A DNA stretch of 63,100 nt, counting the filler. It is 5 parts of 5 records of this genome, joined end to end, with 100 filler letters (N's around TTAATTAATTAA, not from the genome) between each part and the next. Parts side by side here need not be neighbours in the genome. Positions count along the whole stretch, not along the records: positions 31,769 to 44,423 come from SRR20825010_3570; 4 more parts are not named here. One strand, written 5' to 3'. Of the stretch, positions 31,669 through 59,820 are shown one piece after another. The notes beneath the pieces are model-generated. The model worked only from the letters and a program-made list of their open reading frames with translations, was not told where the DNA came from and did not search any database. The translations under genes and the position numbers were made by a program. How positions within the stretch are numbered: position 1 is the stretch's first letter; the number at the start of each line of letters is the position of its first letter.

Positions 31669-31768
31669 NNNNNNNNNNNNNNNNNNNNNNNNNNNNNNNN
31701 NNNNNNNNNNNNTTAATTAATTAANNNNNNNNNNNNNNNNNNNNNNNNNNNNNNNNNNNNNNNNNNNN
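31669..31768. other. Artificial contig linker
   Basis: N44-TTAATTAATTAA-N44, with stops in all six frames. Confidence 0.98.
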
Positions 31769-32042
31769 TTGGAAAAACAGGGTTATTCAGGGGCGACTGT
31801 GTAACCGTAATGTTTCGCTTTGACAGCTCTTCGACGATTCCTCGACTTGCATCCGGTTTGCTCATGTCCACCGTAATATGAATAATGGTGTTTTGAAAAT
31901 CAGGCATTTTCAGGATGGGTTCTCGAGAGCAGGATGAACCTCGAGAGGTGATAACTACGGTCCAACCATTTAATACAAAATATTGGACAAGAATTCGACC
32001 AAATTTGCCAGTCCCGCCTGTTAGTAAAACCACCTTTTTCAT
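31769..32042 (-). CDS. SDR family oxidoreductase, 3'-partial
   Basis: VVLLTGGTGKFG Rossmann motif. Confidence 0.8.
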
Positions 32043-32938
32043 GTCTGTAACCCGGCTTCTATGATCGACACCACTCGCTCGTTGAATGCATATGGGGAGC
32101 GGCAGGTTCGCGTCTGTATGCCTTCAATGAAGTCGACAAGTGCAGATTTGAATGCCGAGAACGAATCGGTGAATACCAAATCACACCAATTCGCTTCGCC
32201 GTGTACGCGAATGAAGATTGGGCTTGCAACCATTTTGCCCAGTGCTGCAAGGTCGGCTGTGATGCCTCCTGCAAAGTCTATTGCTAATCCGCTTCCGCGT
32301 TCGCCGATTGCTCGAGCGGTAGTTCGTACAGGGAGAGTAGACTCCCCAAGCAGGCAAAGTAACGGTTCGATCAGGTGGATCGAATATTTTTCCCAGCCAT
32401 TCGGTGTTACTGCCTGAATGTGTTTGATGTTGCCTATGCGCCTGTGATCCGCTTCACTCAGGACTAATTCCCTAGAATAGCGAAGTGCAGAGCAGGTGAA
32501 CAGCTGACCCTCGTAGCACTGATGCTTGTAGAGTCTTCGCAGTGCTTGCATGGACAGCGCAACAGGCTTGTCGATATACACTGGCACGCCAGCTTCAAGA
32601 AAAGGGCGGGCAAAACCAATGTGATGCTCTGCATCGTCTCGCGCCAGCAAAAGTGCGTCGATTTGTCCAATCATTTCCTTTGGGTCATCCACCACATTGG
32701 CAATCAGTGCTGCGTGTGCAATCGAATAAGACAACACCCGGTCTTGGGTCCAGATGTGGGTAACTTCGACACCAGAAATACGTGCTTCTGGCCAAGTTTG
32801 ATTGGCCAAATAGTGTGGAATGGAAGGGAATTTGCAACAGGCCATGTGTTCTGGGGAATAACCGTTGCAGATTGCCGCCCAGGAATAGGGATGTCCGTTC
32901 CCCTCCGACATCCCAATTAATCCAAGTTTGAGCACCAT
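32039..32938 (-). CDS. Gfo/Idh/MocA family oxidoreductase
   Basis: LGLIGMSEGNGHP; PVYIDKPVA; SALRYS. Confidence 0.75.
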   Translation of the reverse strand: MVLKLGLIGMSEGNGHPYSWAAICNGYSPEHMACCKFPSIPHYLANQTWPEARISGVEVTHIWTQDRVLSYSIAHAALIANVVDDPKEMIGQIDALLLARDDAEHHIGFARPFLEAGVPVYIDKPVALSMQALRRLYKHQCYEGQLFTCSALRYSRELVLSEADHRRIGNIKHIQAVTPNGWEKYSIHLIEPLLCLLGESTLPVRTTARAIGERGSGLAIDFAGGITADLAALGKMVASPIFIRVHGEANWCDLVFTDSFSAFKSALVDFIEGIQTRTCRSPYAFNERVVSIIEAGLQT

Positions 32939-33801
32939 TACTTTTTCCAGTTAACCGGTTCGACGAGCAATGGGTTGCTGCAAGCTAGCGCTGTGCAATC
33001 CACGGCAAGATCTGTTTTCCAAGCTTGAACCAGCTGATTGAAATGTTGCAGGTTGTCGACGCCGACCACAACCCGGGACACACCAGAATGTTGCCGAACG
33101 AACCCCATGCACAGGTCTAGTCGTGATTCGCCGCGCTCTTGCGCCAGTTTGTCCCACTGTTCCCAAAGCTTGTGCCATACATTAAAGCTCGCCGGGCGCA
33201 TCTGTGGCGGCATCAAAAGGAGGCCTTGCAGAAATACAGACCGCGTGTGCACCTCAACTCCTGCATTCATCAAGCGCTTCAGCCAGCCAGTATTTACCAG
33301 TCGCTGATCAAATATGTTGAGCGGGGCCTGAATCAGGTCTGGCGGCAATACATCAAGCAAGCGGGTCAGCTGTTCGGGTCCATAAATGGAATAGCCGATC
33401 TTTGCAACAAAACCTTCCGCTTTTGCTTCTGCCAATCCTGCCTTTATTCGTAGCCCTTCGGAATCAAGGAGATCGGACGCATCGTGCAGCAGCAACCCAC
33501 CCAGTTGTTTCACCCCAAGTTTTGCAAGAGAACGCTGAACATGATCCAAGACCCAACGCCGACCGTCTGTGCCCCCGTTTTTGAATGTAGGCACTTTGCT
33601 GACTATGTTCCAGCCGGACACGCCGATCTCGCCCAGAACCTGTTCACTTTCACCATAAGCACTTGCTGTGTCGAGGGTGTCCAATCCGGATTCCCATGCA
33701 GATTGGATAATGCGGCATGTCTCGTCCCGAGGTGTTTGCCCTGTGGAGTTCGCGATGCCGTAGTTAAGTCCGAATTGGGCGGTGCCCAGTGCCAATTTCA
33801 T
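32938..33801 (-). CDS. Aldo/keto reductase
   Basis: LALGTAQFG; LDTASAYGESE; RSVFLQG. Confidence 0.9.
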   Translation of the reverse strand: MKLALGTAQFGLNYGIANSTGQTPRDETCRIIQSAWESGLDTLDTASAYGESEQVLGEIGVSGWNIVSKVPTFKNGGTDGRRWVLDHVQRSLAKLGVKQLGGLLLHDASDLLDSEGLRIKAGLAEAKAEGFVAKIGYSIYGPEQLTRLLDVLPPDLIQAPLNIFDQRLVNTGWLKRLMNAGVEVHTRSVFLQGLLLMPPQMRPASFNVWHKLWEQWDKLAQERGESRLDLCMGFVRQHSGVSRVVVGVDNLQHFNQLVQAWKTDLAVDCTALACSNPLLVEPVNWKK

Positions 33802-35003
33802 TGACCAAGTGCCTTCCTGAGCGTCGCCACCACCCGGTCTTGTTGTTCATTATTCATTGCAGGATACATCGGAATGCTGATGGTTTCATGGTAGTAGCGT
33901 TCAGCTTCCGGGCAGTATCCTGCCTTGAAGCCCATGGCTTCATAGATCGGTTGCCGATATACCGGTATATAGTGAAGATTGACCAGAATGCCCTCGGCTC
34001 GCAGCACGTCGTAAACCTCCCGTTGCGTTTTGCTTGTTTTGTCTGCATTCAGTCGGATTGGGTAAAGGTGATAGCTTGAATGGCTGTCCGGATGTTGCCA
34101 CGGTGTTTTGACGGGCAGCTCAGCCAGCAAGAGGTTGTAGCGCTCGGCAAGCGCATGGCGTTTGGTGACAAACTCGTCCAGTCGCTTCATTTGGTTGAGG
34201 CCAAGCGCTGCCTGGATGTCTGTCATTCGATAGTTGAATCCAAGGTCGATTTGCTGGTAGTTCCAGATTTCTTGCTCGGGTCTTGGGCGCATTTCTTCAC
34301 TGGAGCTGGTGATCCCGTGGCTGCGCAGCAGGCGCAGGCGCCTGGCCAGCGAGGTGTTATTGGTGACTGCCACACCACCTTCGCCAGTCGTGATGATCTT
34401 CACTGGGTGGAAACTAAAGACGGTGATGTCGCTGTATATGGACCCACCAATGTGCCCTGTTTTGTATCGAGCACCAATTGCATGCGACGCATCTTCGATG
34501 ATTTTGAATCCATATTCCTTGCTGAGCGAATGAATGCCTTCCATGTCGCAGGACTGACCACACATGTGAACTGGAATGACCACCTTGGGCAGTCTATTGA
34601 GTTTCTTTGCAGCAGCTAACTTTGATGCCAAGCATTCCACATCCATGTTGTAGGTGCGAGAGTTAATGTCAACAAAATCGATAGTTGCTCCACAATAAAG
34701 CGCACAATTTGAGGATGCAACAAATGTTATAGGGGAAGTCCAAACAAAGTCTCCTTTGCCGACCCCAAGTGCTAAGCAGGCAGTGTGAAGCGCGCTGGTC
34801 GCACTATTCACTGCAATCGCATATTCACTTTTTACGTATTTAGCAATAGCTTGTTCAAACGCAGGCACCACAGGCCCTTGAGTAAGAAAGTCTGATTTCA
34901 GTACGGATATCACCGCTTCGATATCGCCTTGGTCGATGTCTTGCTTACCATAGGGGATCGAGTCTTTCACGTCAAAGCTAATTGTGGGTTTGGGGCTGCG
35001 CAT
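33798..35003 (-). CDS. pseC: PseC-type DegT/DnrJ sugar aminotransferase
   Basis: IPYGKQ..SDFLTQGP; EDASHAIG; FSFHPVKIITTGEGG; GFNYRMTDIQAALG. Confidence 0.85.
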   Translation of the reverse strand: MRSPKPTISFDVKDSIPYGKQDIDQGDIEAVISVLKSDFLTQGPVVPAFEQAIAKYVKSEYAIAVNSATSALHTACLALGVGKGDFVWTSPITFVASSNCALYCGATIDFVDINSRTYNMDVECLASKLAAAKKLNRLPKVVIPVHMCGQSCDMEGIHSLSKEYGFKIIEDASHAIGARYKTGHIGGSIYSDITVFSFHPVKIITTGEGGVAVTNNTSLARRLRLLRSHGITSSSEEMRPRPEQEIWNYQQIDLGFNYRMTDIQAALGLNQMKRLDEFVTKRHALAERYNLLLAELPVKTPWQHPDSHSSYHLYPIRLNADKTSKTQREVYDVLRAEGILVNLHYIPVYRQPIYEAMGFKAGYCPEAERYYHETISIPMYPAMNNEQQDRVVATLRKALGQ

Positions 35004-35006
35004 GTT

Positions 35007-36761
35007 TCAGATTTTCACTATGTCGTTGTAAGTTCCAGTGCGGCAAATTCGGCCACCCTCTAATTGTATGATGTTAGTGCAGTGTTTAAGTGTGCTGAGT
35101 CGATGGGCCACTATAAAGATGGTAAGTTCTTTATCTAGGTTTTCCAAGGACGACATAACGGCCTCCTCAGTTTTGTTATCTAATGCGCTAGTAGCCTCAT
35201 CGAAAATGATTACATCTGCTTTTTTGTACAGTGCGCGAGCAATTCCAATTCTTTGCCGTTGACCGCCAGAAATTCGAACGCCACGTTCTCCTATTTTGGT
35301 TTCGTATTGATCCGGCCAAGATTCAATGGTCTCACTGATTTGTGCTTTCTTAGCTGCATAGCGCACACGGTCGTGATCAATTAGCGATGGGGGAAATCCA
35401 AATGCAATATTCTCAGTTATGCTCGAATCCGACAGGAATATTGTTTGTGGTACGTGAGCAATAAGTGCTTGCCAATCCCTCAAATTGTTTTCGTCAATCG
35501 GTACTCCGTCTATTGCTAAGTTTCCTGTGGTTGGTGGGAGAAGTCCCATAAGAATGTCAAGAAAGGTACTTTTGCCACTTCCTGTCGTGCCTAATATTCC
35601 TATCCGACTTCCCTTTTGAATTTGTAGGGTTAATGTGCTTAGAGTAGTTGAGGGATTAGTGGTATATCGAAATGAAATGTTTTGTAGGGAAATTGTTTTG
35701 CTGAAATCAATTGGGTTCTTGGAAATAACTCCGGCAGAGGCGGGTGTCTTTTGATCAAGTAGAGCTAAAACATCACTCAGCGACATAATTGCCCCTTGAA
35801 TTGATGTTATGGACGAGAAGGCGTTTTGTAATACGGGAAGCAAGCGTTGGGCGCCCAGGGCGAACGCTCCTAGTAACGGAATTGCATCAGTCTTTGTCGT
35901 TGGGTCTTGTGTCATCCAAAATGCAACGGCAGCGATTGTGACCATTCCTAGTGTTTCGATTACATAGCGGGGGTATTGACTTATGAACTGATTTGTTTCC
36001 TGAGCATTCCGTAGTGCTTTGTCAGATTCTTTATAGATCTCGCAATAAACAACTTGTGAGCCGTCAATTAATATGTCGCGAATTCCCCCCAGCCCTTCTT
36101 GCATGGCTTTCACAACTCGGGTTGATTGCTCTGCAATGCAGTGTCCGGCAGCGTTAACCCGTTTGTGAGTGTTTTTTATAATTAAGGCATAAATTGATCC
36201 GAATAAACATAAAGTAATGATGCTGATTTGTGGATCTATAAATAATAACGCAGTGGAGATTACAGTCAAAATTATGACTGAACTTAGCAGTGTGAGGGAA
36301 GGGATAATAATTCCATAAATTACGGTCGTGGTTTTTGTGATTACCCCGGCTATGACCTCACTGCTGTTGCGTGTTATGTGCACGGAGTATGGTTGGAAAA
36401 GGGTTCGCCAGTAAATGTTTGCACTTAGGTCGGCCCCTATTGAAAACCCTAATTTTGTACTTATTTTAAGCAGTAATAATCTTATGCCGCCCGCAATAAT
36501 TGCGGCTGTTGCGAAAATAATTGAAAAGGGACCTATAAGTTGATTAGGTTGCTCTATTGATAAAATTCTTAGAAAAGGTTGAGCCTTTGGAAATGAGAAA
36601 AATTTCTCTGGTTCAATTAATATGCTTAGAAAAGGAATAACAGCCCCGATACTCACAACTTCTGCTATTGAGCATGTAATCATTAATCCAAATAAAAAAA
36701 TTAATTGTTTTCTCTTCGTCTGGTCTATGTGCCTCCAGAGTCTGAATAGATCTTGATTCAT
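35007..36761 (-). CDS. ABC exporter (fused TMD and NBD) of a glycan cluster
   Basis: GTTGSGKS; ISGGQRQR; IIFDEATSALD. Confidence 0.92.
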   Translation of the reverse strand: MNQDLFRLWRHIDQTKRKQLIFLFGLMITCSIAEVVSIGAVIPFLSILIEPEKFFSFPKAQPFLRILSIEQPNQLIGPFSIIFATAAIIAGGIRLLLLKISTKLGFSIGADLSANIYWRTLFQPYSVHITRNSSEVIAGVITKTTTVIYGIIIPSLTLLSSVIILTVISTALLFIDPQISIITLCLFGSIYALIIKNTHKRVNAAGHCIAEQSTRVVKAMQEGLGGIRDILIDGSQVVYCEIYKESDKALRNAQETNQFISQYPRYVIETLGMVTIAAVAFWMTQDPTTKTDAIPLLGAFALGAQRLLPVLQNAFSSITSIQGAIMSLSDVLALLDQKTPASAGVISKNPIDFSKTISLQNISFRYTTNPSTTLSTLTLQIQKGSRIGILGTTGSGKSTFLDILMGLLPPTTGNLAIDGVPIDENNLRDWQALIAHVPQTIFLSDSSITENIAFGFPPSLIDHDRVRYAAKKAQISETIESWPDQYETKIGERGVRISGGQRQRIGIARALYKKADVIIFDEATSALDNKTEEAVMSSLENLDKELTIFIVAHRLSTLKHCTNIIQLEGGRICRTGTYNDIVKI

Positions 36762-36882
36762 TTGATGGGATGAAAATCTTTAAAAATTTTATTTGGCCGA
36801 ATGCGTTTACGCAAATTTATTTGTAGTCTTGAAAATTCTCATGCTCGCATTTCTGATAATTATGGATCTCATTTCTACATCA

Positions 36883-37218
36883 CTACTTTATTTCAGATTT
36901 CAAAGCCTCAATCTCCGCCTTCAACGCCTCGTACTCTTCCATCTTTCGCCTCAGAAAAGCACTGGTCAGCTTTGCTTTCTCTGCAATACCCCTGGGTGTA
37001 AGTACATACACATACCCAAACTTGTTTTTGCTGTTGGCAAAGTTCTGCATTTTCACCAAGCCTTTTTCCGTCAGGGCTTTCAGGCAGTAGTTCAGCCCGC
37101 CCACGCTAACGCCTAGCTTTTCAGCCAGTTCACGTTGGGTAAGGTCGGGGTTTTCTTCCAGCAGCCGCATCACGCGGTAGTTGGTATCTTCCTGAATTTT
37201 GGCTTGGCGACTGGTCAT
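36883..37218 (-). CDS. EPS-associated MarR family regulator
   Basis: LTQRELAEKLGVSVGGLNYCL..YVYVLTPRGIAEK; ATG 37218. Confidence 0.92.
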   Translation of the reverse strand: MTSRQAKIQEDTNYRVMRLLEENPDLTQRELAEKLGVSVGGLNYCLKALTEKGLVKMQNFANSKNKFGYVYVLTPRGIAEKAKLTSAFLRRKMEEYEALKAEIEALKSEIK

Positions 37219-37233
37219 TTTTTGGGTTTTGGG

Positions 37234-37270
37234 CACGCTACCGCCCTGCTGTGTAACGGTCAGCATTCGC
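37234..37270 (-). promoter_or_regulatory. JUMPstart/ops element (RfaH-type antitermination)
   Basis: Minus strand TGCTG-accgttaca-CAGCA-g-GGCGGTAGCGTG; ops at 37234-37245. Confidence 0.85.
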
Positions 37271-37418
37271 AAGTAGAAAAGCTAGGATAACGAAGATTTG
37301 TTAAAGTTTGAACAATCCGGGTAGGTCTGGCCGAATATTTTCTGTGCCCCCGCATTTGCGGGGGGAATTACCGCACTGTCTGCCCTCAAGTTGATTGGCC
37401 AGCTACTTGGTGCCGTAA

Positions 37419-37437
37419 GTGAAGGTCGTCCCGCCGC
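37419..37437 (+). repeat. 19-bp direct repeat, second copy at 41739-41757
   Basis: GTGAAGGTCGTCCCGCCGC versus GTGAGGGTCGTCCCGCCGC. Confidence 0.85.
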
Positions 37438-37440
37438 GAC

Positions 37441-37767
37441 GTCTTGGATCGGCCGGCTTTTTCGCAGCCAAATGGACAACCCGTCTTGAAGCCGAGTGGA
37501 TCAGATCGCTTGAAAAGCAGCGGCCAGATTTGGTTGGAAAGCTTGAGGTGCGACGCGACTGTATGCGCGAGGCCGTTCCCGATTTCGGTTTTGACCGAAT
37601 ATGGGATTGAAGCTGTTGATCCAGTGGGGGCGATCACGGCTTTTAAACTGATGCGGGCGCGCCGCAAGAAGCCAAAATCAGACCCGGAAGACTTTGCATA
37701 TGCATTAGAGGTGGGAGGATTGCCAATGACTGCGGAAAGTATACGGCTGGCTGCGGAGTTGATTTGA
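37441..37767 (+). pseudogene. PIN-domain protein remnant with internal deletions and a frameshift
   Basis: AGFFAAKWTTRLEAEWIRSLEKQRPDL..MREAVPD in one frame, then FP..LTEYGIEAVDP..GLPMTA in the next frame. Confidence 0.65.
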
Positions 37768-37895
37768 TAGTGCTTGCATCACCATGCATGGCAAGGCGGC
37801 CTCCCCCCATCGAATGACCACTGAAGGCGTTTTTTGTCACCATGGCTACATGGTGCTAGCCTGCTTCATTCTTTGTAATGGGTTGGGCTTAAACC

Positions 37896-38372
37896 ATGCG
37901 CTGCATTTTGTTTGCCTTGGCACTGTTGTTGCCACTTGCCCCTGAACAGTCGGAGGCTTTTGTGTTCAAAAAAGTTGTGTACAGCTCGCCGGTGGAGGGC
38001 GCTATTCATTGGGGTGGGAAGCCCTTGCCCAACGTAACCATAACCCGTGAACTTTACAGCGGTGGTTTCAAGAACGACCGCTATGAAGACACGGCGCAAA
38101 CGAATTCGCAGGGTGCGTTCAATTTACCTGTGGTTGAGGAGAGGCGCTTGTTTCGGCCAGATTTGTTGTCGGCGAATCCGACAGTTTATCAGTCGATGAC
38201 GCTAATTTTTGATGGTCATAGATATGCTTTTTGGTCTCATTCCAAGCACAACTTCTTTGAGAGGAGTGAAGGAACGGGTGGTGTACTCATCATTGATTGT
38301 GACCTGTCCAAGCATGAAGACCACGACGATTTTCGTATTGTGAGATGTAAGCACAACGGGAGCGAAAGATGA
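37896..38372 (+). CDS. Secreted DUF6795-like protein, putative lipase-effector immunity protein
   Basis: Signal peptide; SPVEG..GKPLPNVTITR..TNSQGAFNLP; ATGA overlap with the lipase. Confidence 0.6.
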   Translation: MRCILFALALLLPLAPEQSEAFVFKKVVYSSPVEGAIHWGGKPLPNVTITRELYSGGFKNDRYEDTAQTNSQGAFNLPVVEERRLFRPDLLSANPTVYQSMTLIFDGHRYAFWSHSKHNFFERSEGTGGVLIIDCDLSKHEDHDDFRIVRCKHNGSER

Positions 38373-39282
38373 GGCCTTTAAGTCCCGCTCAAATTTATGG
38401 GTTCTCTGAAAAAACCTATGAGGCCAGAAAACTGAATAATCTTTTATTCAGAGAATTGTTGGGTAAAAATTTTCCATTCGTAAAGGTAAGCACAGCTCAA
38501 ATCATCACCGCCACTTCAGGCCTTGGCCTTCGCGCAAGCAGTGGTTTTGGTTTCATGGCCCAGCTCAATGGTGGGCGTTCAAAGGAAATTGTGATCGTTA
38601 CACGCGGTACCTCGACCGCAGCCGACTGGGCCACCGCCTTGGCGGTGCGCTGGCCAATTTGAATGCGGCAGCTTGCGCTGAACTGGGCATGAATTCATAC
38701 CTTTACAGCGTGGCAGCGCCACGGGTGGGCTTGGTGCCGTGTTACCCCTTTGTGCACGCCCCATATATTCGTGGTACGCACTTGCTCGATGGCGGTATGC
38801 TGAAAATCAACCCCATGCAGCACATGCTGGGAAATGGCTATAAGGCCATGATCAACAGCAGCTGGAAGCAACTAAAAAGCGCAAGCCAGGGCAAGCAACA
38901 GCAGTTGGAAAACTCCCTGCGCTTGGCAATGAACAAAGATGCAGGCTACTTCGAGCAGATTGCCAACATGCCGGGGGCCATGTTCTCGGGCAGGTTGTTG
39001 AATCGCGTGGGCGCGCAAAGTTTGCTAACAGTGAGCCACTACGGCACAGGGGCATTCACTGTGTTGGACCAGCTTGCCGAGCTGTTGGCTCGCTATGCGC
39101 AAGGCGGCTACAAAAGGGCCAAGGAAACTGTAGGTTTGCTCAATGCCGTAATGGCTTACCTGGGGCGAGCAGCCAATAGCGTGAAAGACGCAACGGTGGC
39201 CACCATACGCTGGGTATTTGCGCTTTTGCTGCAATCGGTCAACACCATGGCCAAAATGGCGCTAGAGCTTGTGGGGCGGTAG
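38369..39282 (+). pseudogene. Class 3 lipase (Tle-like) inactivated by internal deletions
   Basis: IVTRGT..DW, then a frameshift into LGGALA (GHS missing); APRVG joined directly to VPCYPFVHAP. Confidence 0.7.
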
Positions 39283-39296
39283 GTGTGTCCTACTGC

Positions 39297-39332
39297 ACCA
39301 CCAGCCGCGCAATCGCCTGCGGGGCTGGTGGT
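39297..39332. terminator. Hairpin between convergent genes
   Basis: ACCACCAGCC...GGCTGGTGGT. Confidence 0.55.
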
Positions 39333-39367
39333 ATTAAAGTTTTTTCAAGCAGATGTGGCTCGGTGCT

Positions 39368-40231
39368 TCAATGCTCAGTGGCACCCTGAAATCCATTCCG
39401 AAAGGCATCAATCGAATCCAGGCAGAAATCAATTGGATTGATTTTTCCAGCTTGGGATTCCGACATGTGCTGTGCCATCAGCAGCTTACTATTTGAGTCG
39501 GAAAGGAGATCAATCACATCCCGAGCATTCTTTGGGCTACTAATTAACGCAGTGTCATGACCGAGCATCCACGCACTAACCAAGTCGTGATCTTTGTAAA
39601 TTTCCAGCTGATTAGAAAACTCATCGAACAGGCGCTCGAAATTTCCAGCCCATTGATATTGTTTGCATATGGTGATTAAGTCGATGGCGTCTTTACCATG
39701 GGTACTTTTTCCCCGATCTTTCCAAGCCATAATTTTCAACAAAGCAATGGCAGGCAAGCTGGCCACCTTCACAACTACACCCGCTTTTAGCTCAATGCTT
39801 ACCGTGGATTGCAATGCATCAAGAAAGCCGGCAACGCTCATAATGACCTGCATGTCAGGGGGCCACGCCAAGCGATCGAACTTATCCTGGACACCGCCAA
39901 TCGGAATTAGATCAATAGAATAGAAATCTTCGGGTGAAGGCGTTTTTTTTCGAAGGCGATGCATGTTGCCCTCAATCGCAATGAAAGCATGTTGTTCACA
40001 CAACATCTTTTTCACCACTTCAAAGCTTTCCCAGTTCTCTACAACAACGGCGAAATCAACATCTCGACTGGCTCTGGAAACAGGTCGACCATAAACCTTT
40101 TCCAGCAAAATGATTCGAGCCATGGCACCAACCATGAATACTTCAACATTCATCTCGTTTGCAGCGCAAACGATGTGTTCAATCACATCCGTTTCGCTGG
40201 GCGTCAGCGGAATCTTCAAGTGCAATATCAT
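39368..40231 (-). CDS. abiEii: AbiEii-type nucleotidyltransferase toxin (type IV TA)
   Basis: FMVGAMAR..RASRDVDFAV; LLKIMAWKDR..KDAID. Confidence 0.8.
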   Translation of the reverse strand: MILHLKIPLTPSETDVIEHIVCAANEMNVEVFMVGAMARIILLEKVYGRPVSRASRDVDFAVVVENWESFEVVKKMLCEQHAFIAIEGNMHRLRKKTPSPEDFYSIDLIPIGGVQDKFDRLAWPPDMQVIMSVAGFLDALQSTVSIELKAGVVVKVASLPAIALLKIMAWKDRGKSTHGKDAIDLITICKQYQWAGNFERLFDEFSNQLEIYKDHDLVSAWMLGHDTALISSPKNARDVIDLLSDSNSKLLMAQHMSESQAGKINPIDFCLDSIDAFRNGFQGATEH

Positions 40232-41262
40232 GACAAGTATTTTTTGAAAAGTAGGTCTGCCGCTTCCAAGTTTCTTGGGTCAAAGCTGCCTAACAAATCG
40301 GCGTACACCAGCAATGGCGGGCACACTGTAGTGCCTGTAAGTGGCCAAAAGGCCTCGAGCAGTTCAACATTACCTTGAGGATCTCGCAACAAGCGATGAT
40401 CACGAATTAACTTCTGTGCGTTGCTTTTCGCGGTATCGGCTGTCAAATAGATGGTGCAGCTACCGGGTCGCAAGTATCCCGTCAAGCGATCGGCCGCCAC
40501 TTCGCCACCCCAAACTCCATCGTAATTCGGAAGGTCGACGTTTTCCCACCAATTCGGCTGCTCTGAGCGATAGCGCCCCAGCAATAATTTGGAGCGCAAG
40601 CGTGTATCGAAATTGACCACCCATTCGTTCTGGAGGCTTTGAGTATTCAACAATTGCCGCCCCAACTTCTTGCTTGCCTTTATATAGCCACGTTCAGTCA
40701 AGTCGCTGAATACAGCACTTACAGTGCCCAATGAAACACCTGTCGATTTGGCAATTTCCCGGAATGGTTTTTGTATAAATTCCGCTTGGGTTAACAAAAC
40801 AAACACCAGGCGCAATGCACTGGAAGTCACCACGCCAGATGACGATGGCTTAAGCAAACTGGCAATACCTTGTGTTAAAGGGTCGGTACGCCCTTCTATA
40901 TAAACGACTAATCCAGGTGCTTGCAAAAAAGCATTGCCATGTGTGTCTAGAAACTGAATACCCATGCTCCGGCACTCGCGTGCCATTTCAGGCGTCATTT
41001 TTCGTGTCACAACAATTTCGCCTGGATGTTGAAGTTCTTTTCCAGTCCGAAGTGCAGCTACTGCACTGCGCCGATCAATATTCTTGAATAAAACCCCGAA
41101 GTCATATGTTTTTTGCTCTACGGTGATTCGAACAATTTGACCCGCGCCTTTTCTGGAGCGAAGCACGGCCTTCAAACCCGTTGATTCCTTTAAGGCATCA
41201 AGAGCGTGTTCCAACAGCAAAACTTGCTGGGCGTCGGTGGCTGGATCAAAAGTGGGCTTCAT
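40228..41262 (-). CDS. abiEi: AbiEi family antitoxin (type IV TA)
   Basis: FLDTHGNAFL; wHTH REIAKSTGVSLGTVS; WGGEVAA; PLLVYADL; start placed at ATG 41262. Confidence 0.8.
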   Translation of the reverse strand: MKPTFDPATDAQQVLLLEHALDALKESTGLKAVLRSRKGAGQIVRITVEQKTYDFGVLFKNIDRRSAVAALRTGKELQHPGEIVVTRKMTPEMARECRSMGIQFLDTHGNAFLQAPGLVVYIEGRTDPLTQGIASLLKPSSSGVVTSSALRLVFVLLTQAEFIQKPFREIAKSTGVSLGTVSAVFSDLTERGYIKASKKLGRQLLNTQSLQNEWVVNFDTRLRSKLLLGRYRSEQPNWWENVDLPNYDGVWGGEVAADRLTGYLRPGSCTIYLTADTAKSNAQKLIRDHRLLRDPQGNVELLEAFWPLTGTTVCPPLLVYADLLGSFDPRNLEAADLLFKKYLS

Positions 41263-41278
41263 GTTCAATAAATTCAGC

Positions 41279-41297
41279 TGTTCGCGTAACGTGAACA
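41279..41297. promoter_or_regulatory. Inverted repeat, probable AbiEi operator
   Basis: TGTTCGCG-TAA-CGTGAACA, with extra TGTTCA/TGAACA half-sites nearby. Confidence 0.5.
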
Positions 41298-41325
41298 TAC
41301 AATAATAATGAACAAATTTCAACTG

Positions 41326-41730
41326 CTAGTCCGCATGAGCTACACAAGATTCCTCGCTACTTTCGTAAGCGCGTTTCGTGTTTTCGTCATTCACCCAAGC
41401 CAGAACAATTATTTTAGCTGCCGCGTGGTAACGAAAAAACAGGCGGTATTGTTGAAAAAATTTGGCTCTGAACCAGTGTTTGCGATCCTCCCCCAAGGTG
41501 CCCCCTTGGCGATACTCGGGCTTTGAAGGGTCTTGCGGAATAATGTTGAAAGCCAGGTTAACAATGGCGGCCAGCCGTTTGCTGGCGTTTTTCTTGCTGT
41601 ACCCTTCGGGGTCTTTTTGTTTAAGCGCTTGAACTTGTTGCTCCAGGCTTTCAAGTTGGGCAATGAACAGGGGGTGTGCAAAAACTGTCCAGCCATGGAT
41701 TGCCAATGCAAGTGCATTACCCCGATCCAT
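41326..41730 (-). pseudogene. yhaV: YhaV-family toxin, apparently C-terminally truncated, with no prlF
   Basis: GWTVFAHPLF; WFRAKFFQQYRLFFRY; AWVNDENTKRAYES, then an abrupt unrelated tail. Confidence 0.7.
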
Positions 41731-41877
41731 GCAGCACTGTGAGGGTCGTCCCGCCGCACCACCATGGCGGTAAGGTCTAACTGTTTTTCAGAATTACCTA
41801 TAAAAAATAATCAAAATTCATGCGATGTAAATGTTTTTCATGGCATACTGATTTTTGGCTATTGGTAATCAAAATTC

Positions 41878-43425
41878 ATGAAATCAGCTATTTATAATTG
41901 TTTTTCAGAAAGAATAAGCGTTTTTCAGGAGTTTCCGCTTCTGCCGCAGGGGAGCACCTTGGCCGGTTACTCTGCTTTGATTCAAGCGCATGGCCTGAAA
42001 GTACCCGCCCCCGACTCACTTTGTGCAATTAGCCCAAAACATGAAGTGACGAATAAAGGTGGTTGGCAGCTATACACCCCCAGGTACACACCTGGGGACA
42101 CCTTACAAGCGCACCTTACCTTTGCCCTGAAGTACGAAGGATTGAACCTGCATGTTTTGCATGCCCTGTTCAGCGCGATTAAGCCTGATGAAATTACCAG
42201 AATTGTTCAATCGGAACCGACTGGTTCGTACAGTCGGCGAATTTGGTTTCTGTACGAATGGTTAACAGGGAGCAAGCTGCCACTTGATGATGTAGCTACC
42301 GGTAACTTTGTTGAGCTGATCAATAGCAAACTTCAATACCCAGGGCCTGCCAGGGATTCAAAACGCCACCGTGTACGCAATAACCTGCCGGGCACGCAGG
42401 CATTCTGCCCGTTGGTACGGCGAACAGAAACGCTTGATGAACTGATTACCCAGAATTTGTCTTCTGTGGCTTCTCGGCAAATGGGCAAAACACACGGGGA
42501 TTTGTTGTCTCGCGCTGCGGCTTTCCTTCTTTTGAAAGATTCGAAAGCTTCTTATCACATTGAGGGCGAATCCCCGCCGCACAATCGGCTTGAACGTTGG
42601 GGCAAGGTGATAGGGCGTGCCGGGCAACGCAAGCTAAGTATCGAGGAATTGGAGTTCTTGCAGGATGAGGTAATACCGGATCAGCGATTCATAACACCTG
42701 GCTTAAGAAACGAAGGGGGGTTTATTGGTGCGCACGACCGCATCACAGGCATGCCGCTGCCAGACCATATTTCAGCAAACCCCAAAGATCTTGATTCTTT
42801 AATGGGTGGAATGATCGAGACCTACGCGCTTTTGCTGAACAGCGAATACAACCCCGTACTAACAGCCGCGCTGATTGCATTTGGTTTTGTGTTTATTCAT
42901 CCGTTTGAAGATGGCAATGGTCGTATTCATCGATATTTGATTCACCATGTTTTGGCTGAAACAGGCTTTGTGCCCAAGGGGCTGGTTTTTCCGGTTTCAG
43001 CTGTAATTCTTGAGCGTATCGAGGCGTACAAAAAAATACTGGAGCATTTTTCAAAGCGACGGCTGGGTTTGATCGACTGGCGCCCCTCGGTGAAGAACAA
43101 TGTTGAGGTGTTAAATGACACCCGAGACTTGTATCGGTTTTTTGATGCAACAAAGCAGGCTGAGTTTCTGTTTGAGTGTGTGGCCGAGACTGTGAACATA
43201 ACCTTGCCTGCCGAGGTTGATTATTTGCAGAAGTACGATCAGCTGAATTCCTTCATCAAAAATTTTCTGGACATGCCCGACAACAAAGTAGATTTGTTAA
43301 TTCGCTTTCTTGTTCAGAACGGTGGGCGCTTGCCCAAACGCGCAATCGGCAAGGAGTTTTCCGGGCTGACAGAAAATGAACGCCAGGCAATTGAGGCGCG
43401 TTATTTGGAAATTTACTCGGGTTGA
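41878..43425 (+). CDS. Fic family protein
   Basis: HPFEDGNGRIHR Fic motif. Confidence 0.92.
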   Translation: MKSAIYNCFSERISVFQEFPLLPQGSTLAGYSALIQAHGLKVPAPDSLCAISPKHEVTNKGGWQLYTPRYTPGDTLQAHLTFALKYEGLNLHVLHALFSAIKPDEITRIVQSEPTGSYSRRIWFLYEWLTGSKLPLDDVATGNFVELINSKLQYPGPARDSKRHRVRNNLPGTQAFCPLVRRTETLDELITQNLSSVASRQMGKTHGDLLSRAAAFLLLKDSKASYHIEGESPPHNRLERWGKVIGRAGQRKLSIEELEFLQDEVIPDQRFITPGLRNEGGFIGAHDRITGMPLPDHISANPKDLDSLMGGMIETYALLLNSEYNPVLTAALIAFGFVFIHPFEDGNGRIHRYLIHHVLAETGFVPKGLVFPVSAVILERIEAYKKILEHFSKRRLGLIDWRPSVKNNVEVLNDTRDLYRFFDATKQAEFLFECVAETVNITLPAEVDYLQKYDQLNSFIKNFLDMPDNKVDLLIRFLVQNGGRLPKRAIGKEFSGLTENERQAIEARYLEIYSG

Positions 43426-43466
43426 GAAAATAATTGCAGGCGTTTACTGAAGTGCCTCGGCTTCTG

Positions 43467-44162
43467 TTACAGGCCTCGACGCTGGCAGTACTTGGTCAAG
43501 CTCATCACCTCCCTGCGTACAGTACTGGTTTTGCGCATCACATTGGCCGTGGTCGGGCACAATAAATTGCCTACTTCGAAAATGCGCTTGTGAGCATCAA
43601 GCAAATCAAGATGAAAGATAGGCTCATGATGGGCAACTCGGTTTCGTAGCTGCCTCAGTTTTTCCAATTGCTGATTAAAAGTGGCCCGCTTGGGGGCCTT
43701 ACGTGGGGCAAATGCCTTATGCAGGCAGGGCACCCAAAGCTTGTGTTCCAACTTTGAGTCGGTCAGTTGCAGCCAGAACCCGAAGGTTAGTTCAGCGATC
43801 ACCTTGCCGGGTGGAAGTGCTTGGTTCTTGGCCCAATGCCTACCTGCATCTTTTTGGGCTTTCAGTAAAATGGCATGGCAGCGACCATTAACCAGAGCAA
43901 GAAACGAAACCTCCTTGAACCACTCGGAGCCGAATTTGGCCTCCAGCGCTTGATCAAACTTGTTGCGCAGTCCTACTTCGATGTAGTGCAGGTCAGTCAT
44001 TACGGCTGCACTTATCTTGGTGTTGAAAACATAGAGGCGCAGGGCCTGCTGTAAATTGTTTTTGGAGGCATGCAGGTATTTGCTGAGGCGAGGACGAGTC
44101 AGGGTGCCAGCCATGTGGCTGAGGCTGCAGGCGTCTAGCGCCGGGAACTTCATACTCGTCAC
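43467..44162 (-). CDS. Abi_2 (AbiD/AbiF-like) HEPN-domain protein
   Basis: RLSKY..ALRLY; IEVGLRN; ELTFGFW; LRNRVAHHEPI (RxxxxH); AAGGA RBS 7 nt before GTG. Confidence 0.85.
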   Translation of the reverse strand: MTSMKFPALDACSLSHMAGTLTRPRLSKYLHASKNNLQQALRLYVFNTKISAAVMTDLHYIEVGLRNKFDQALEAKFGSEWFKEVSFLALVNGRCHAILLKAQKDAGRHWAKNQALPPGKVIAELTFGFWLQLTDSKLEHKLWVPCLHKAFAPRKAPKRATFNQQLEKLRQLRNRVAHHEPIFHLDLLDAHKRIFEVGNLLCPTTANVMRKTSTVRREVMSLTKYCQRRGL

Positions 44163-44199
44163 GTTCTAATCCTTAGTTTCTGTTTGTTATTGCCCGGAC

Positions 44200-44228
44200 T
44201 TGCTCAAAGATGGGGGATGGGGTAACAT
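44200..44228 (+). promoter_or_regulatory. Sigma70 promoter driving the candidate sRNA
   Basis: TTGCTC-17 nt-TAACAT. Confidence 0.6.
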
Positions 44229-44234
44229 TAAGTC

Positions 44235-44291
44235 AAAGCAAGCCCTCGGTGTGACCTCTGCGTAAGCATGCCCCCGGGGGCATCGTTTTTT
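44235..44291 (+). ncRNA. Candidate structured small RNA, possible Abi_2 antitoxin
   Basis: GCCCTCGG/CCGGGGGC stem, inner UGC-GUAA-GCA hairpin, U6 tail, no ORF, promoter directly upstream. Confidence 0.55.
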
Positions 44292-44423
44292 CAAATTCCC
44301 CGAATACATCGCCCCACATTACTAATTCCCCCACGTGTTTCAATCCGAAGCAGCATGTTCAAGCTGTGGTTTGGGTAATTATACTTCTGAGCACATCCCC
44401 ACAGCTTCCACAGTAGAGGTACC

Positions 44424-44523
44424 NNNNNNNNNNNNNNNNNNNNNNNNNNNNNNNNNNNNNNNNNNNNTTAATTAATTAANNNNNNNNNNNNNNNNNNNNN
44501 NNNNNNNNNNNNNNNNNNNNNNN
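44424..44523. other. Artificial contig linker
   Basis: N44-TTAATTAATTAA-N44. Confidence 0.98.
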
Positions 44524-53479: not shown

Positions 53480-53579
53480 NNNNNNNNNNNNNNNNNNNNN
53501 NNNNNNNNNNNNNNNNNNNNNNNTTAATTAATTAANNNNNNNNNNNNNNNNNNNNNNNNNNNNNNNNNNNNNNNNNNNN
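53480..53579. other. Artificial contig linker
   Basis: N44-TTAATTAATTAA-N44. Confidence 0.98.
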
Positions 53580-59720: not shown

Positions 59721-59820
59721 NNNNNNNNNNNNNNNNNNNNNNNNNNNNNNNNNNNNNNNNNNNNTTAATTAATTAANNNNNNNNNNNNNNNNNNNNNNNN
59801 NNNNNNNNNNNNNNNNNNNN
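59721..59820. other. Artificial contig linker
   Basis: N44-TTAATTAATTAA-N44. Confidence 0.98.

Follow-up and report, generated by a model that had tools for sequence, protein, structure and literature searches.

AbiF-type HEPN ribonucleases with their small RNAs have been proposed as ancestors of Cas13 and are among the commonest single-gene phage defences. The locus described here raises the question whether a short structured unit lying back to back with an Abi_2 gene encodes an RNA partner of the gene product and, if so, whether this partner is of the known kind. The window, by which we mean the whole stretch of DNA that was analysed (63,100 nucleotides), consists of five contigs joined via N linkers. 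The module is located in the part that covers positions 31,769-44,423, obtained from SRR20825010_3570, with the RNA element 130 nt from the contig end (44423).

The Abi_2 protein and its relation to AbiF

The protein component is encoded on the minus strand:

43467..44162, minus strand: abi_2 gene, encoding a compact Abi_2/HEPN protein of 231 amino acids, with a GTG start codon and the sequence AAGGA 7 nt upstream

The initial annotation had described the gene product as an Abi_2 HEPN nuclease with an intact RxxxxH motif, and profile, alignment and fold comparisons bear this out. Pfam profile PF07751 (Abi_2) matches the protein over profile positions 26-183 of 184 with a score of 40.7 bits, well above the cutoff of 25.6 (E 4e-10). 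The HEPN R-x4-H motif is present as RNRVAH (R173-H178), and residues R173, N174, R175, A177, H178 and H179 are invariant in 44 aligned Abi_2 homologues. Among known defence proteins, the best PADLOC match is PD-T4-5 (4.5e-13), and AbiD is matched at 1e-9. Neither the protein nor the 44-sequence profile matched any sequence in the PDB at E <= 1 or at E <= 10, and AbiF was found by fold search only. For the AF2 model (pLDDT 94.4) the best Foldseek match is 8vz6_A, which is PbAbiF with its ncRNA (probability 1.00, TMq 0.60, E 1.9e-3); it is the sole convincing fold match in the PDB, the next matches having E > 0.3. The structural alignment with PbAbiF shows 14% sequence identity, and hhalign aligns the RxxxxH motif of the Abi_2 protein with that of AbiF. 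The 231-amino-acid protein is a genuine Abi_2 HEPN protein related to AbiF, with a length that compares to 287 amino acids for phiC2 AbiF and 297 for PbAbiF.

The Abi_2 protein is predicted to act as a homodimer. The homodimer prediction, made without the alignment, has a score of 0.80, whereas the best of three controls scores 0.00. Of 30 proteins solved as same-chain pairs, 21 reached the mark applied here, while none of 23 solved as single chains did. At least 96% of contacts are shared between the dimer runs, and the partner pLDDT is at least 88. Since a like dimer, 8VZ6, has already been solved, passing this mark may reflect likeness rather than provide independent evidence.

A conserved unit directly upstream of abi

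Between the abi start codon and the end of the upstream unit, the following elements were assigned; both ends of the RNA are predicted:

44163..44199, minus strand: abi 5' leader, with the Shine-Dalgarno sequence AAGGA and a CA-rich block (homologue consensus GAACAACAAG)
44200..44205, plus strand: -35 box TTGCTC of the small-RNA promoter, 37 nt from the abi GTG, with a 17-nt spacer to the -10 box
44223..44228, plus strand: -10 box TAACAT of the small-RNA promoter
44235..44291, plus strand: predicted small RNA of 57 nt, whose predicted start is an A 7 nt downstream of the -10 box and which includes the U-tract up to its last base
44242..44249, plus strand: 5' strand GCCCUCGG of the 8-bp outer stem, pairing with 44274-44281 in the RNAalifold consensus
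44242-44249 and 44274-44281, plus strand: outer-stem strands GCCCTCGG and CCGGGGGC, respectively, as present in the window
44251..44253, plus strand: middle helix of 3 bp (GUG), pairing with 44269-44271 (UGC)
44254..44258, plus strand: bulge ACCUC of 5 nt, invariant in 6/6 sequences and unpaired in the consensus fold
44259..44268, plus strand: apical hairpin UGC-GUAA-GCA, with loops GUAA, GCGA, GAAA, GCAA and GUCA across homologues
44268..44283, plus strand: 16-nt palindrome ATGCCCCCGGGGGCAT, an alternative terminator hairpin that is mutually exclusive with the outer stem
44286..44291, plus strand: U-tract T6, with a T-run in 6/6 loci (T6 in three, CTTTTC in three)

By sequence and folding alone, the small-RNA features of the window are unremarkable and do not exceed chance. 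The small-RNA promoter matches 7 of 12 consensus bases in the window, with 3 of 6 matched in the -35 box in five of six loci, and the promoter scan did not call it in the window, L002 or L006. A separate abi promoter was likewise called in none of the four loci scanned (window, L002, L003 and L006). The terminator was called on the plus strand in all four of these loci; the scan at the window's own locus found 4 terminator-like sites, against 1.2 +/- 1.1 in shuffles. The small RNA of the window folds with -19.7 kcal/mol (z = -1.35), a value equalled by 18 of 200 shuffles. What lifts the element above chance is its conservation beside homologous genes.

The upstream regions of six close homologues with usable flanks were compared (67-83% protein identity); L001 and L005 are 99% identical, so that these represent five independent loci. 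In all six, the abi gene is preceded by a 59-nt block together with a TAnnAT -10 box and a -35 box at 17 bp. The block has a mean column identity of 94% (alignment A6), begins at the predicted start site and ends at the U-tract, in agreement with the short unit ending in U6 that had been noted at 44286-44291. Mean identity of the small RNA is 0.895, as compared to 0.51 at synonymous third positions of identical codons. The sigma70-like promoter TTGCTC-17-TAACAT, reported earlier on the strand opposite to abi and 37 nt upstream of it, is present there, and its boxes are kept in the homologues. The -35 box is identical in five of six loci; in L003 a 20-nt insertion brings in TTGACC as -35 box with the spacing still at 17 bp, and this TTGACC-type promoter is the sole promoter-like site in 400 nt (0.0 expected in shuffles). 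The -10 boxes of the homologues read TACTAT, TAGGAT, TAGTAT and TATTAT, with T1, A2, A5 and T6 fixed and the middle positions varying freely. The CA-rich block of the abi leader is also kept (alignments A2 and A4).

The block was found only in association with abi. Model R1, applied to the block, gives 84-91 bits in 6/6 loci and finds a single copy; these loci span five different genomic contexts. Searching 72,556 plasmids gave two with the block, each directly beside an abi gene, whereas no copies were detected in 50,697 phage records and neither copies nor DNA similarity in E. coli genomes. The R1 model also found nothing upstream of the distant homologues L008-L011 (33-38% identity). Compared in this way, the upstream unit behaves like an opposite-strand small RNA gene, a view that the pattern of conservation supports.

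In L001/L005 and L006, genes for serine recombinases are found next to the module. L007, the copy on an Aromatoleum plasmid, lacks everything before residue 77, has unrelated upstream DNA and no RNA block, and was set aside as an uninformative remnant; the Fic gene beside it is unrelated to the Fic gene of the window. An antisense terminator-like hairpin upstream of an Acetobacter gene was considered as an analogous RNA and rejected, because the segment is widespread in Acetobacter plasmids and hence not abi-specific.

Two readings without a functional RNA were considered. According to the first, the conserved region encodes a small protein on the abi sense strand, where an ORF of 40 amino acids (44187-44309) is open in four of five independent loci. 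Over the approximately 17 shared codons the third positions are invariant; a hypervariable spot coincides with positions 1-2 of one codon (Y/R/F/D/C), three more single changes occur at first or second positions, and in L002 the ORF is without a start codon. Variation at positions 1-2 and never at the third is the opposite of coding selection, and the small-protein reading was rejected. According to the second, the promoter boxes are incidental, and the hairpin and T-run act as a terminator, as an insulator or, at the border of a mobile cassette, as a DNA palindrome to which a protein binds. In its favour, a palindrome followed by a T-run is what a terminator typically looks like, the block lies at the border of the conserved cassette, and recombinase genes lie beside the module in L001/L005 and L006. 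However, the recombinases do not all lie on one side of the module, and in L002 and L003 its surroundings showed none. Moreover, some 35 nt before the terminator are invariant, unpaired bases included, whereas a terminator needs the stem and T-run alone. The terminator points away from the upstream genes and therefore cannot end these, and its sole possible feed is the conserved promoter. We consider it very improbable that the block is without a dedicated RNA function.

Folding and strand of the predicted RNA

In the consensus fold, the outer stem is paired in 100% of cells, with a C-to-U change in the window that retains a G-U pair, and the middle helix shows two G-U to G-C changes, one in L003 and one in L001/L005. 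All three stem substitutions are G-U/G-C exchanges on the plus strand. The apical loops all conform to GNNA, and four of the five distinct loops to GNRA. The alternative terminator hairpin is paired in 97.5% of cells; in L001/L005 one substitution breaks one of its pairs on the RNA strand. Of the two mutually exclusive folds proposed in the initial annotation, both can form and their elements lie where they had been placed, but covariation backs neither: none of the 14 pairs has changed in both bases, in a comparison of low power (five distinct sequences, 94% identity). The invariant ACCUC bulge may be a site of protein contact. The anti-Shine-Dalgarno end of 16S rRNA also contains this string, although an identity over 5 nt is weak evidence.

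Promoter, U-tract, GNNA loops and G-U/G-C substitutions all agree and point to transcription directed away from abi. The opposite assignment would make the functional RNA a hairpin in the abi 5' leader or a co-directional upstream ncRNA, which would be an analogue, though divergent, of the abiF motif. That motif is a 37-nt hairpin with a GC-rich outer stem of 6 bp, an inner stem of 3 bp and a 3' internal loop of 6 nt, located upstream and on the same strand as the gene, and the systems described are all co-directional. The consensus fold is also slightly better on the abi sense strand (-24.0 kcal/mol, 15 pairs) than on the plus strand (-21.7 kcal/mol), and two of the three stem substitutions fall at unpaired positions of the sense fold. 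On the other hand, 87% of cells are paired in the mirrored fold of the other strand as compared to 100% on the plus strand, the substitution in the window would be a C-A mismatch, and the loops would read UNNC, for which we know of no stable class. Furthermore, conservation ends at the A-run, beyond which the upstream sequences are different genes, so that no conserved promoter could make the abi-sense strand, and the TAnnAT box with its -35 box at 17 bp faces the opposite way. The abiF covariance model matched neither strand at E <= 10. An RNA on the abi strand is unlikely in view of these findings.

A further possibility accepts a real small RNA on the plus strand but assigns it to the control of expression instead of protein activity: its promoter would occlude a weak abi promoter, or the transcript would be antisense to longer abi transcripts, keeping abi expression low in a type I-like or antisense manner. 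In the type I pairs tisB/istR-1, zorO/orzO and shoB/ohsC, a divergent sRNA lies directly upstream with own promoters; the toxins of the tisB/istR-1 type are small membrane peptides, and the sRNA matches the toxin mRNA over 18-21 nt. The present module resembles these pairs in having a predicted small RNA gene directly upstream of the putative toxin gene, divergent and with its own promoter. Consistent with control of expression are the distance of just 37 nt between the -35 box of the RNA and the abi start codon, combined with an abi promoter that remained uncalled in 4/4 loci scanned, a candidate abi promoter on the sense strand (-35 TTGAYN, 18 bp, CAT(C/T)TT), and TTGAC-like hexamers at the RNA start site in five of six loci (alignment A2). 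In L001, L003, L005 and L006, the gene upstream runs in the same direction as abi and stops 10-20 nt short of the RNA 3' end, and read-through transcripts would thus carry the exact complement of the RNA.

Yet the candidate abi -10 box is poor and missing from L002 and L003, a direct repeat between the RNA gene and abi was not found, and conservation of the whole hairpin, the bulge and the loop closing bases is unexplained by mere occlusion. Duplexes of the RNA with the abi leader and the first 150 nt are no better than those of shuffled RNAs, with 4-24 of 30 shuffles equal across the six loci. Complementarity with this region thus does not exceed chance, though read-through abi transcripts may still overlap. 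The toxin candidate, unlike those of type I systems, is a soluble helical HEPN protein of 231 amino acids rather than a small hydrophobic peptide. Control of expression appears rather doubtful to us, if worth keeping in mind.

Comparison with known systems and proposed role

Rfam scans yielded no genuine match to any family in a 1425-nt region, its 76-nt core or nine related loci. For the abiF motif RF03085 (gathering threshold 37 bits) in particular, there was no match at E <= 10 on either strand of the region or of the core, and none in the nine loci; the phiC2 copy, which served as positive control, was found with 37.6 bits. The phiC2 motif is located 75 nt upstream of the gene and on the gene's own strand. 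The 57-nt RNA is not the Rfam abiF motif, and the comparison proposed in the initial annotation yielded no relationship.

The known RNA partners also differ in layout. In the published accounts, as far as available, RCd22, the RNA antitoxin of C. difficile AbiF_Cd, starts 168 nt upstream and is co-transcribed with abiF from the same strand, and PbAbiF has the RNA antitoxin AbiFr. In these sources, the RNA partners of AbiF (RCd22, AbiFr) and of AbiV are encoded upstream of the gene and share its strand, and the RNA antitoxins of HEPN Abi proteins described in the literature found are all co-directional with the gene. Because the known AbiF and AbiV partners are upstream on the gene's strand, the divergent layout is unlike anything found in print, and the earlier statement that it was not recognised as described stands with respect to the literature searched. 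To our knowledge, the only RNA partner of Abi_2 proteins so far is the co-directional abiF motif, mainly from Bacillota with one example from Prevotellaceae.

Similar to the AbiF systems with an ncRNA (PbAbiF-AbiFr, PDB 8VZ6, and AbiF_Cd-RCd22), the module combines the Pfam Abi_2 family, the RxxxxH motif, the fold and a predicted dimer with a short structured and conserved RNA directly upstream that is more conserved than the gene. For the lactococcal AbiD/F systems, too, the available account describes an upstream RNA more conserved than the gene (PMC13064643). Unlike in AbiF systems, the RNA lies on the opposite strand with its own predicted promoter and terminator, and has one hairpin instead of two motifs. 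The best PADLOC match, PD-T4-5, is a plasmid-borne Abi_2 defence gene of E. coli that, according to PMC9519451, is distantly related to AbiF/D and protects by abortive infection; the available part of that description presents it as a single gene without mention of an RNA partner (PMC9519451), unlike the module described here.

In its proposed logic, the module would resemble ToxIN, AbiQ, CptIN, TenpIN and AbiV-abiV2, where an RNase toxin is checked by a small abundant cis RNA and freed on phage infection. The RNAs of these systems are encoded upstream on the toxin's strand; those of the ToxIN type are tandem repeats that are processed by the toxin. According to the accounts available, the AbiQ antitoxin is a repeated non-coding RNA as well, and abiV2 lies upstream of its gene. 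Tandem Repeats Finder returned 0 rows at a minimum score of 30 for positions 43400-44423. Unlike in type III toxin-antitoxin systems, the RNA is single-copy, divergent and equipped with its own promoter, and is not part of the toxin operon behind a terminator.

Taken together, the reading of the initial annotation is supported in part. The predicted RNA is probably a partner of a new type for the Abi_2 phage-defence toxins, and likely their antitoxin. We envisage the module as two-part and mobile. One part would be the 231-amino-acid Abi_2/HEPN ribonuclease, a predicted homodimer as in AbiF. The other would be an RNA of ca. 57 nt, made from its own sigma-70-type promoter, heading away from abi and ending at its own intrinsic terminator. 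This RNA would fold into one long imperfect GC-rich hairpin with the invariant ACCUC bulge and a GNRA-type cap, and could alternatively form the short terminator hairpin. By analogy with AbiF, on which the assignment as a type III-like antitoxin is based, the abundant RNA would be produced in the cell, bind the Abi_2 dimer and keep an otherwise toxic RNase silent; a phage infection that halts transcription in the host or causes the RNA to be destroyed would release the RNase, which would then arrest the cell (abortive infection). For a compact Abi_2/HEPN RNase with a divergent RNA of this size, the antitoxin is the most likely of the roles considered, although we rate it at slightly below an even chance.

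Somewhat more tentatively still, the module may define an undescribed subclass, in which a compact proteobacterial Abi_2 RNase is neutralised by a stand-alone, divergent, single-hairpin RNA unrelated to the abiF motif. Such a pair could be an independent solution, or else have diverged very far from the RNA-protein pairing in which Cas13 is proposed to have its origin. In this subclass, overlapping back-to-back promoters would tie the output of toxin and antitoxin to each other, and the ACCUC bulge might occupy the HEPN site as a pseudo-substrate.

For annotation, tools for the detection of defence genes would report an Abi_2 gene by itself and overlook the second component. If the antitoxin role is true, it would account for some "single-gene" Abi_2 systems that may resist cloning, or lack activity when their flank is missing, and the module would provide an RNA-protein pair of ca. 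0.9 kb for studying how HEPN RNases recognise structured RNA. The existence of another RNA partner, unrelated to the first and in a different gene layout, would mean that control of Abi_2 toxins by RNA extends beyond the abiF motif.

Conservation of an element upstream of abi

The abi gene in the window is preceded by a conserved element, the features of which coincide exactly with the promoter, stem, hairpin, palindrome and T6 tract placed there by the initial annotation.

Features of the abi module in the window
43467-44162, minus strand: abi gene, 231 aa, GTG start, AAGGA 7 nt upstream
44200-44205, plus strand: -35 box TTGCTC, 37 nt from the abi start codon
44223-44228, plus strand: -10 box TAACAT, 17-nt spacer after TTGCTC
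44242-44249 with 44274-44281, plus strand: outer stem, 8-bp GC; 5' strand (44242-44249) GCCCTCGG
44251-44253 with 44269-44271, plus strand: 3-bp helix
44254-44258, plus strand: invariant 5-nt bulge ACCUC
44259-44268, plus strand: hairpin TGC-GTAA-GCA, a 3-bp stem with GNRA cap
44268-44283, plus strand: palindrome ATGCCCCCGGGGGCAT
44286-44291, plus strand: T6

By itself, without comparison, the element is unremarkable. Its promoter has 7 of 12 consensus bases and is absent from the list of the scan tool; its terminator is listed, but among four such sites per 1.4 kb where 1.2 are expected, and the RNA fold (-19.7 kcal/mol, z = -1.35) is equalled by 18 of 200 shuffles. A genome scan yielded four loci and plasmid searches two more with close homologues, giving a comparison of the window, Chitiniphilus, Aquaspirillum, a gammaproteobacterial MAG, a Comamonas plasmid and a Xanthomonas oryzae plasmid (63-84% protein identity). 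Alignment of upstream DNA, proposed in the initial annotation as a check, showed that the element precedes abi in every one of the six loci where the close homologue is full-length and the upstream DNA usable; these count as five independent loci since the Chitiniphilus and Comamonas DNA is 99% identical. A seventh locus, Robbsia, has a flank of only 10 nt and was left out of the count. Mean identity is 0.895 in the 59-nt core as compared to 0.51 at third positions of identical codons of abi. The similarity starts only at the A/T-run and the upstream genes vary by locus (resolvase, ArdC-like protein, HTH protein, unknown ORFs), so that the module consists of the element and abi. The block is found in only 2 of 72,556 plasmids, adjoining an abi gene in both, and no copy was found in the phage collection or in E. 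coli genomes. When the window and 11 loci, four of them with distant homologues and one with a truncated copy, were searched with a covariance model of the six sequences, no further copy was detected.

A CA-rich block (consensus GAACAACAAG) in the abi leader, window 44163-44199, is also kept in all six loci. It lies between the -35 box of the RNA and the Shine-Dalgarno sequence and could be a translation enhancer or a piece of the abi promoter region.

Additionally, a 99% identical cassette is found on the Chitiniphilus chromosome scaffold (L001, 2601-4957) and the Comamonas plasmid (L005, 3271-5957), which suggests recent transfer. It comprises, in this order, a resolvase, the small RNA, abi, a 279-284-aa protein without family match and a Rap1a/Tai-type immunity protein; the last two genes are missing from the other loci. 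Plasmid 2 of Aromatoleum aromaticum EbN1 (L007, 3001-3464) harbors an unannotated abi remnant in two pieces (residues 77-231, 65% identity) that has neither the 5' part nor the RNA block. Between two divergent genes of an Acetobacter plasmid (L008, 1396-1421), a strong terminator-like hairpin is oriented away from a distant Abi_2 gene; as it marks the edge of a segment common to many Acetobacter plasmids, it is not abi-specific.

Fold, strand and identity of the predicted RNA

Judged from these sequence signals, the predicted RNA extends from ca. 44235 to 44291 (57 nt). The palindrome also allows a 5-6-bp terminator hairpin beside the U-tract, exclusive of the outer stem; each of the two mutually exclusive folds of the initial annotation is a real possibility, with neither favoured by the data. 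The covariation analysis suggested there found none of 14 pairs changed on both sides among the five independent sequences and proves neither fold.

Four observations (promoter, terminator, loop and substitutions) speak for the strand directed away from abi as the RNA strand. The -35 box TTGCTC is spaced 17 bp from the -10 box, which reads TAACAT, TACTAT, TAGGAT, TAGTAT or TATTAT across loci, with T1, A2, A5 and T6 fixed and the middle free; the 6-7 nt that follow are variable, and the predicted start is where invariance sets in. In the MAG locus (L003, ca. 2905-2945; columns 37-56 of nucleotide alignment A4) the RNA promoter carries a 20-nt insertion forming an inverted repeat, AGGAGGGAGG...CCTCCCTCCT. 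Here the old -35 box is degraded to TTCCAC and a new TTGACC is supplied at exactly 17 bp, and this is the sole promoter-like site in the 400 nt scanned (0.0 expected). A T-run follows the palindrome on the RNA strand in 6/6 loci, the other strand being without one, and a terminator was called in all four loci scanned. The apical loops (GUAA, GCGA, GAAA, GCAA, GUCA) are always G..A, and would be U..C on the other strand. Each of the three substitutions in the stems is a G-U/G-C exchange on the RNA strand, where 100% of the cells are paired versus 87% when the fold is mirrored on the opposite strand. Against this, the consensus fold of the other strand is more stable in a slightly shifted register (-24.0 versus -21.7 kcal/mol); it places two of the three changes at unpaired positions. 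In L001 and L005 the short terminator hairpin of the RNA strand loses its outermost pair to one change.

The element is not the Rfam abiF motif, with which the initial annotation had suggested a comparison: neither strand gave an Rfam match at E <= 10, a search confined to 76 nt included, and nine related loci gave none either. In phiC2 the same tool recovered RF03085 (37.6 bits), on the strand of abiF and 75 nt upstream of that gene. A repeat array was likewise ruled out. A sense-strand ORF of 40-60 aa does cross the block (window 44187-44309, minus strand, with counterparts in L001, L003, L005 and L006, the latter another locus with a close homologue), is open in four of the five independent loci, and in L001, L005 and L006 its closing TGA overlaps the abi GTG. 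Over the shared ca. 17 codons of the conserved core, third positions never vary and one codon is radically altered at positions 1-2; this substitution pattern and the missing start codon in a further locus, L002, speak against a protein-coding block. No complementarity was detectable between the RNA and the leader or early coding part of abi.

The Abi_2 protein and its surroundings

The 231-aa protein belongs to the Pfam family Abi_2 (40.7 bits, cutoff 25.6), its best PADLOC models being PD-T4-5 and AbiD. There are 255 homologues of similar length at E <= 0.001, mainly from metagenomes, and across 44 aligned homologues R173, N174, R175, A177, H178, H179 and E180 are invariant, as are E62, R66 and N67. 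No PDB chain matched by sequence. The predicted structure (pLDDT 94.4, high confidence) has a single convincing neighbour, PbAbiF with its ncRNA (8vz6_A; prob 1.00, TMq 0.60, 14% identity), all remaining matches having E > 0.3. Profile comparison with AbiF of phage phiC2 is weak (prob 7.9%, E 0.0044), with the HEPN motifs of both lining up. The protein is predicted to form a homodimer: the score was 0.80 as compared to 0.00 for the best of three controls. Of proteins with a solved structure, 21 of 30 that are pairs of one chain reached the mark used, as did 0 of 23 that are single chains. Because a similar dimer has already been solved, the prediction reflects likeness and is not independent proof. 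Prediction runs agreed in at least 96% of contacts (pLDDT at least 88).

The second contig (31769-44423, 48% G+C) carries the module, with the element 130 nt from the contig end; the module closes a small toxin-antitoxin/defence cluster (39368-43425).

Cluster preceding the abi module
39368-40231, minus strand: AbiEii
40228-41322, minus strand: AbiEi-like protein, 364 aa, N-terminal half without assignment
41326-41730, minus strand: YhaV-type toxin
41878-43425, plus strand: Fic protein, 515 aa

The 148 nt upstream of yhaV contain no visible ORF for a PrlF/AbrB-type antitoxin. The five contigs (G+C 0.43, 0.48, 0.61, 0.64 and 0.47) are joined by linkers of the form N44-TTAATTAATTAA-N44 at 31669-31768, 44424-44523, 53480-53579 and 59721-59820; the flanks of a linker are therefore not genomic neighbours and may stem from different organisms.

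Possible functions of the RNA

RNA-controlled Abi_2/AbiF systems are already known. The toxic AbiF_Cd is neutralised by RCd22 in cis as well as in trans; RCd22 binds it directly and is co-transcribed, starting 168 nt upstream (bioRxiv 10.1101/2025.04.15.648962). PbAbiF is a dimer with one ncRNA per monomer, and bulged nucleotides of this RNA inhibit the RNase (review PMC12737573). Also described are a conserved upstream sequence required by lactococcal AbiD/F genes (PMC13064643), an upstream ncRNA used by AbiV (bioRxiv 10.1101/2024.05.05.592566) and abortive-infection defence conferred by PD-T4-5 (PMC9519451). The present case differs in three respects: the RNA has no relation to the abiF motif, it appears to be a stand-alone divergent transcription unit, and the protein is compact. 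In the literature searched, which includes few subscription journals, no Abi_2 protein was described with an RNA partner encoded divergently from it; this is not proof of absence.

The main rival explanation is that the RNA controls abi expression. No abi promoter is recognisable, the -35 box of the RNA is only 37 nt from the abi start codon, and TTGAC-like hexamers occur at the RNA start site in 5/6 loci, so that the two promoters may overlap back to back; alternatively, the RNA could as an antisense meet read-through from co-directional upstream genes. By analogy with the known systems, the most likely role of the RNA is that of an antitoxin, which would bind the Abi_2 dimer through its invariant bulge and loop; once replenishment of the RNA stopped, the system would be released.
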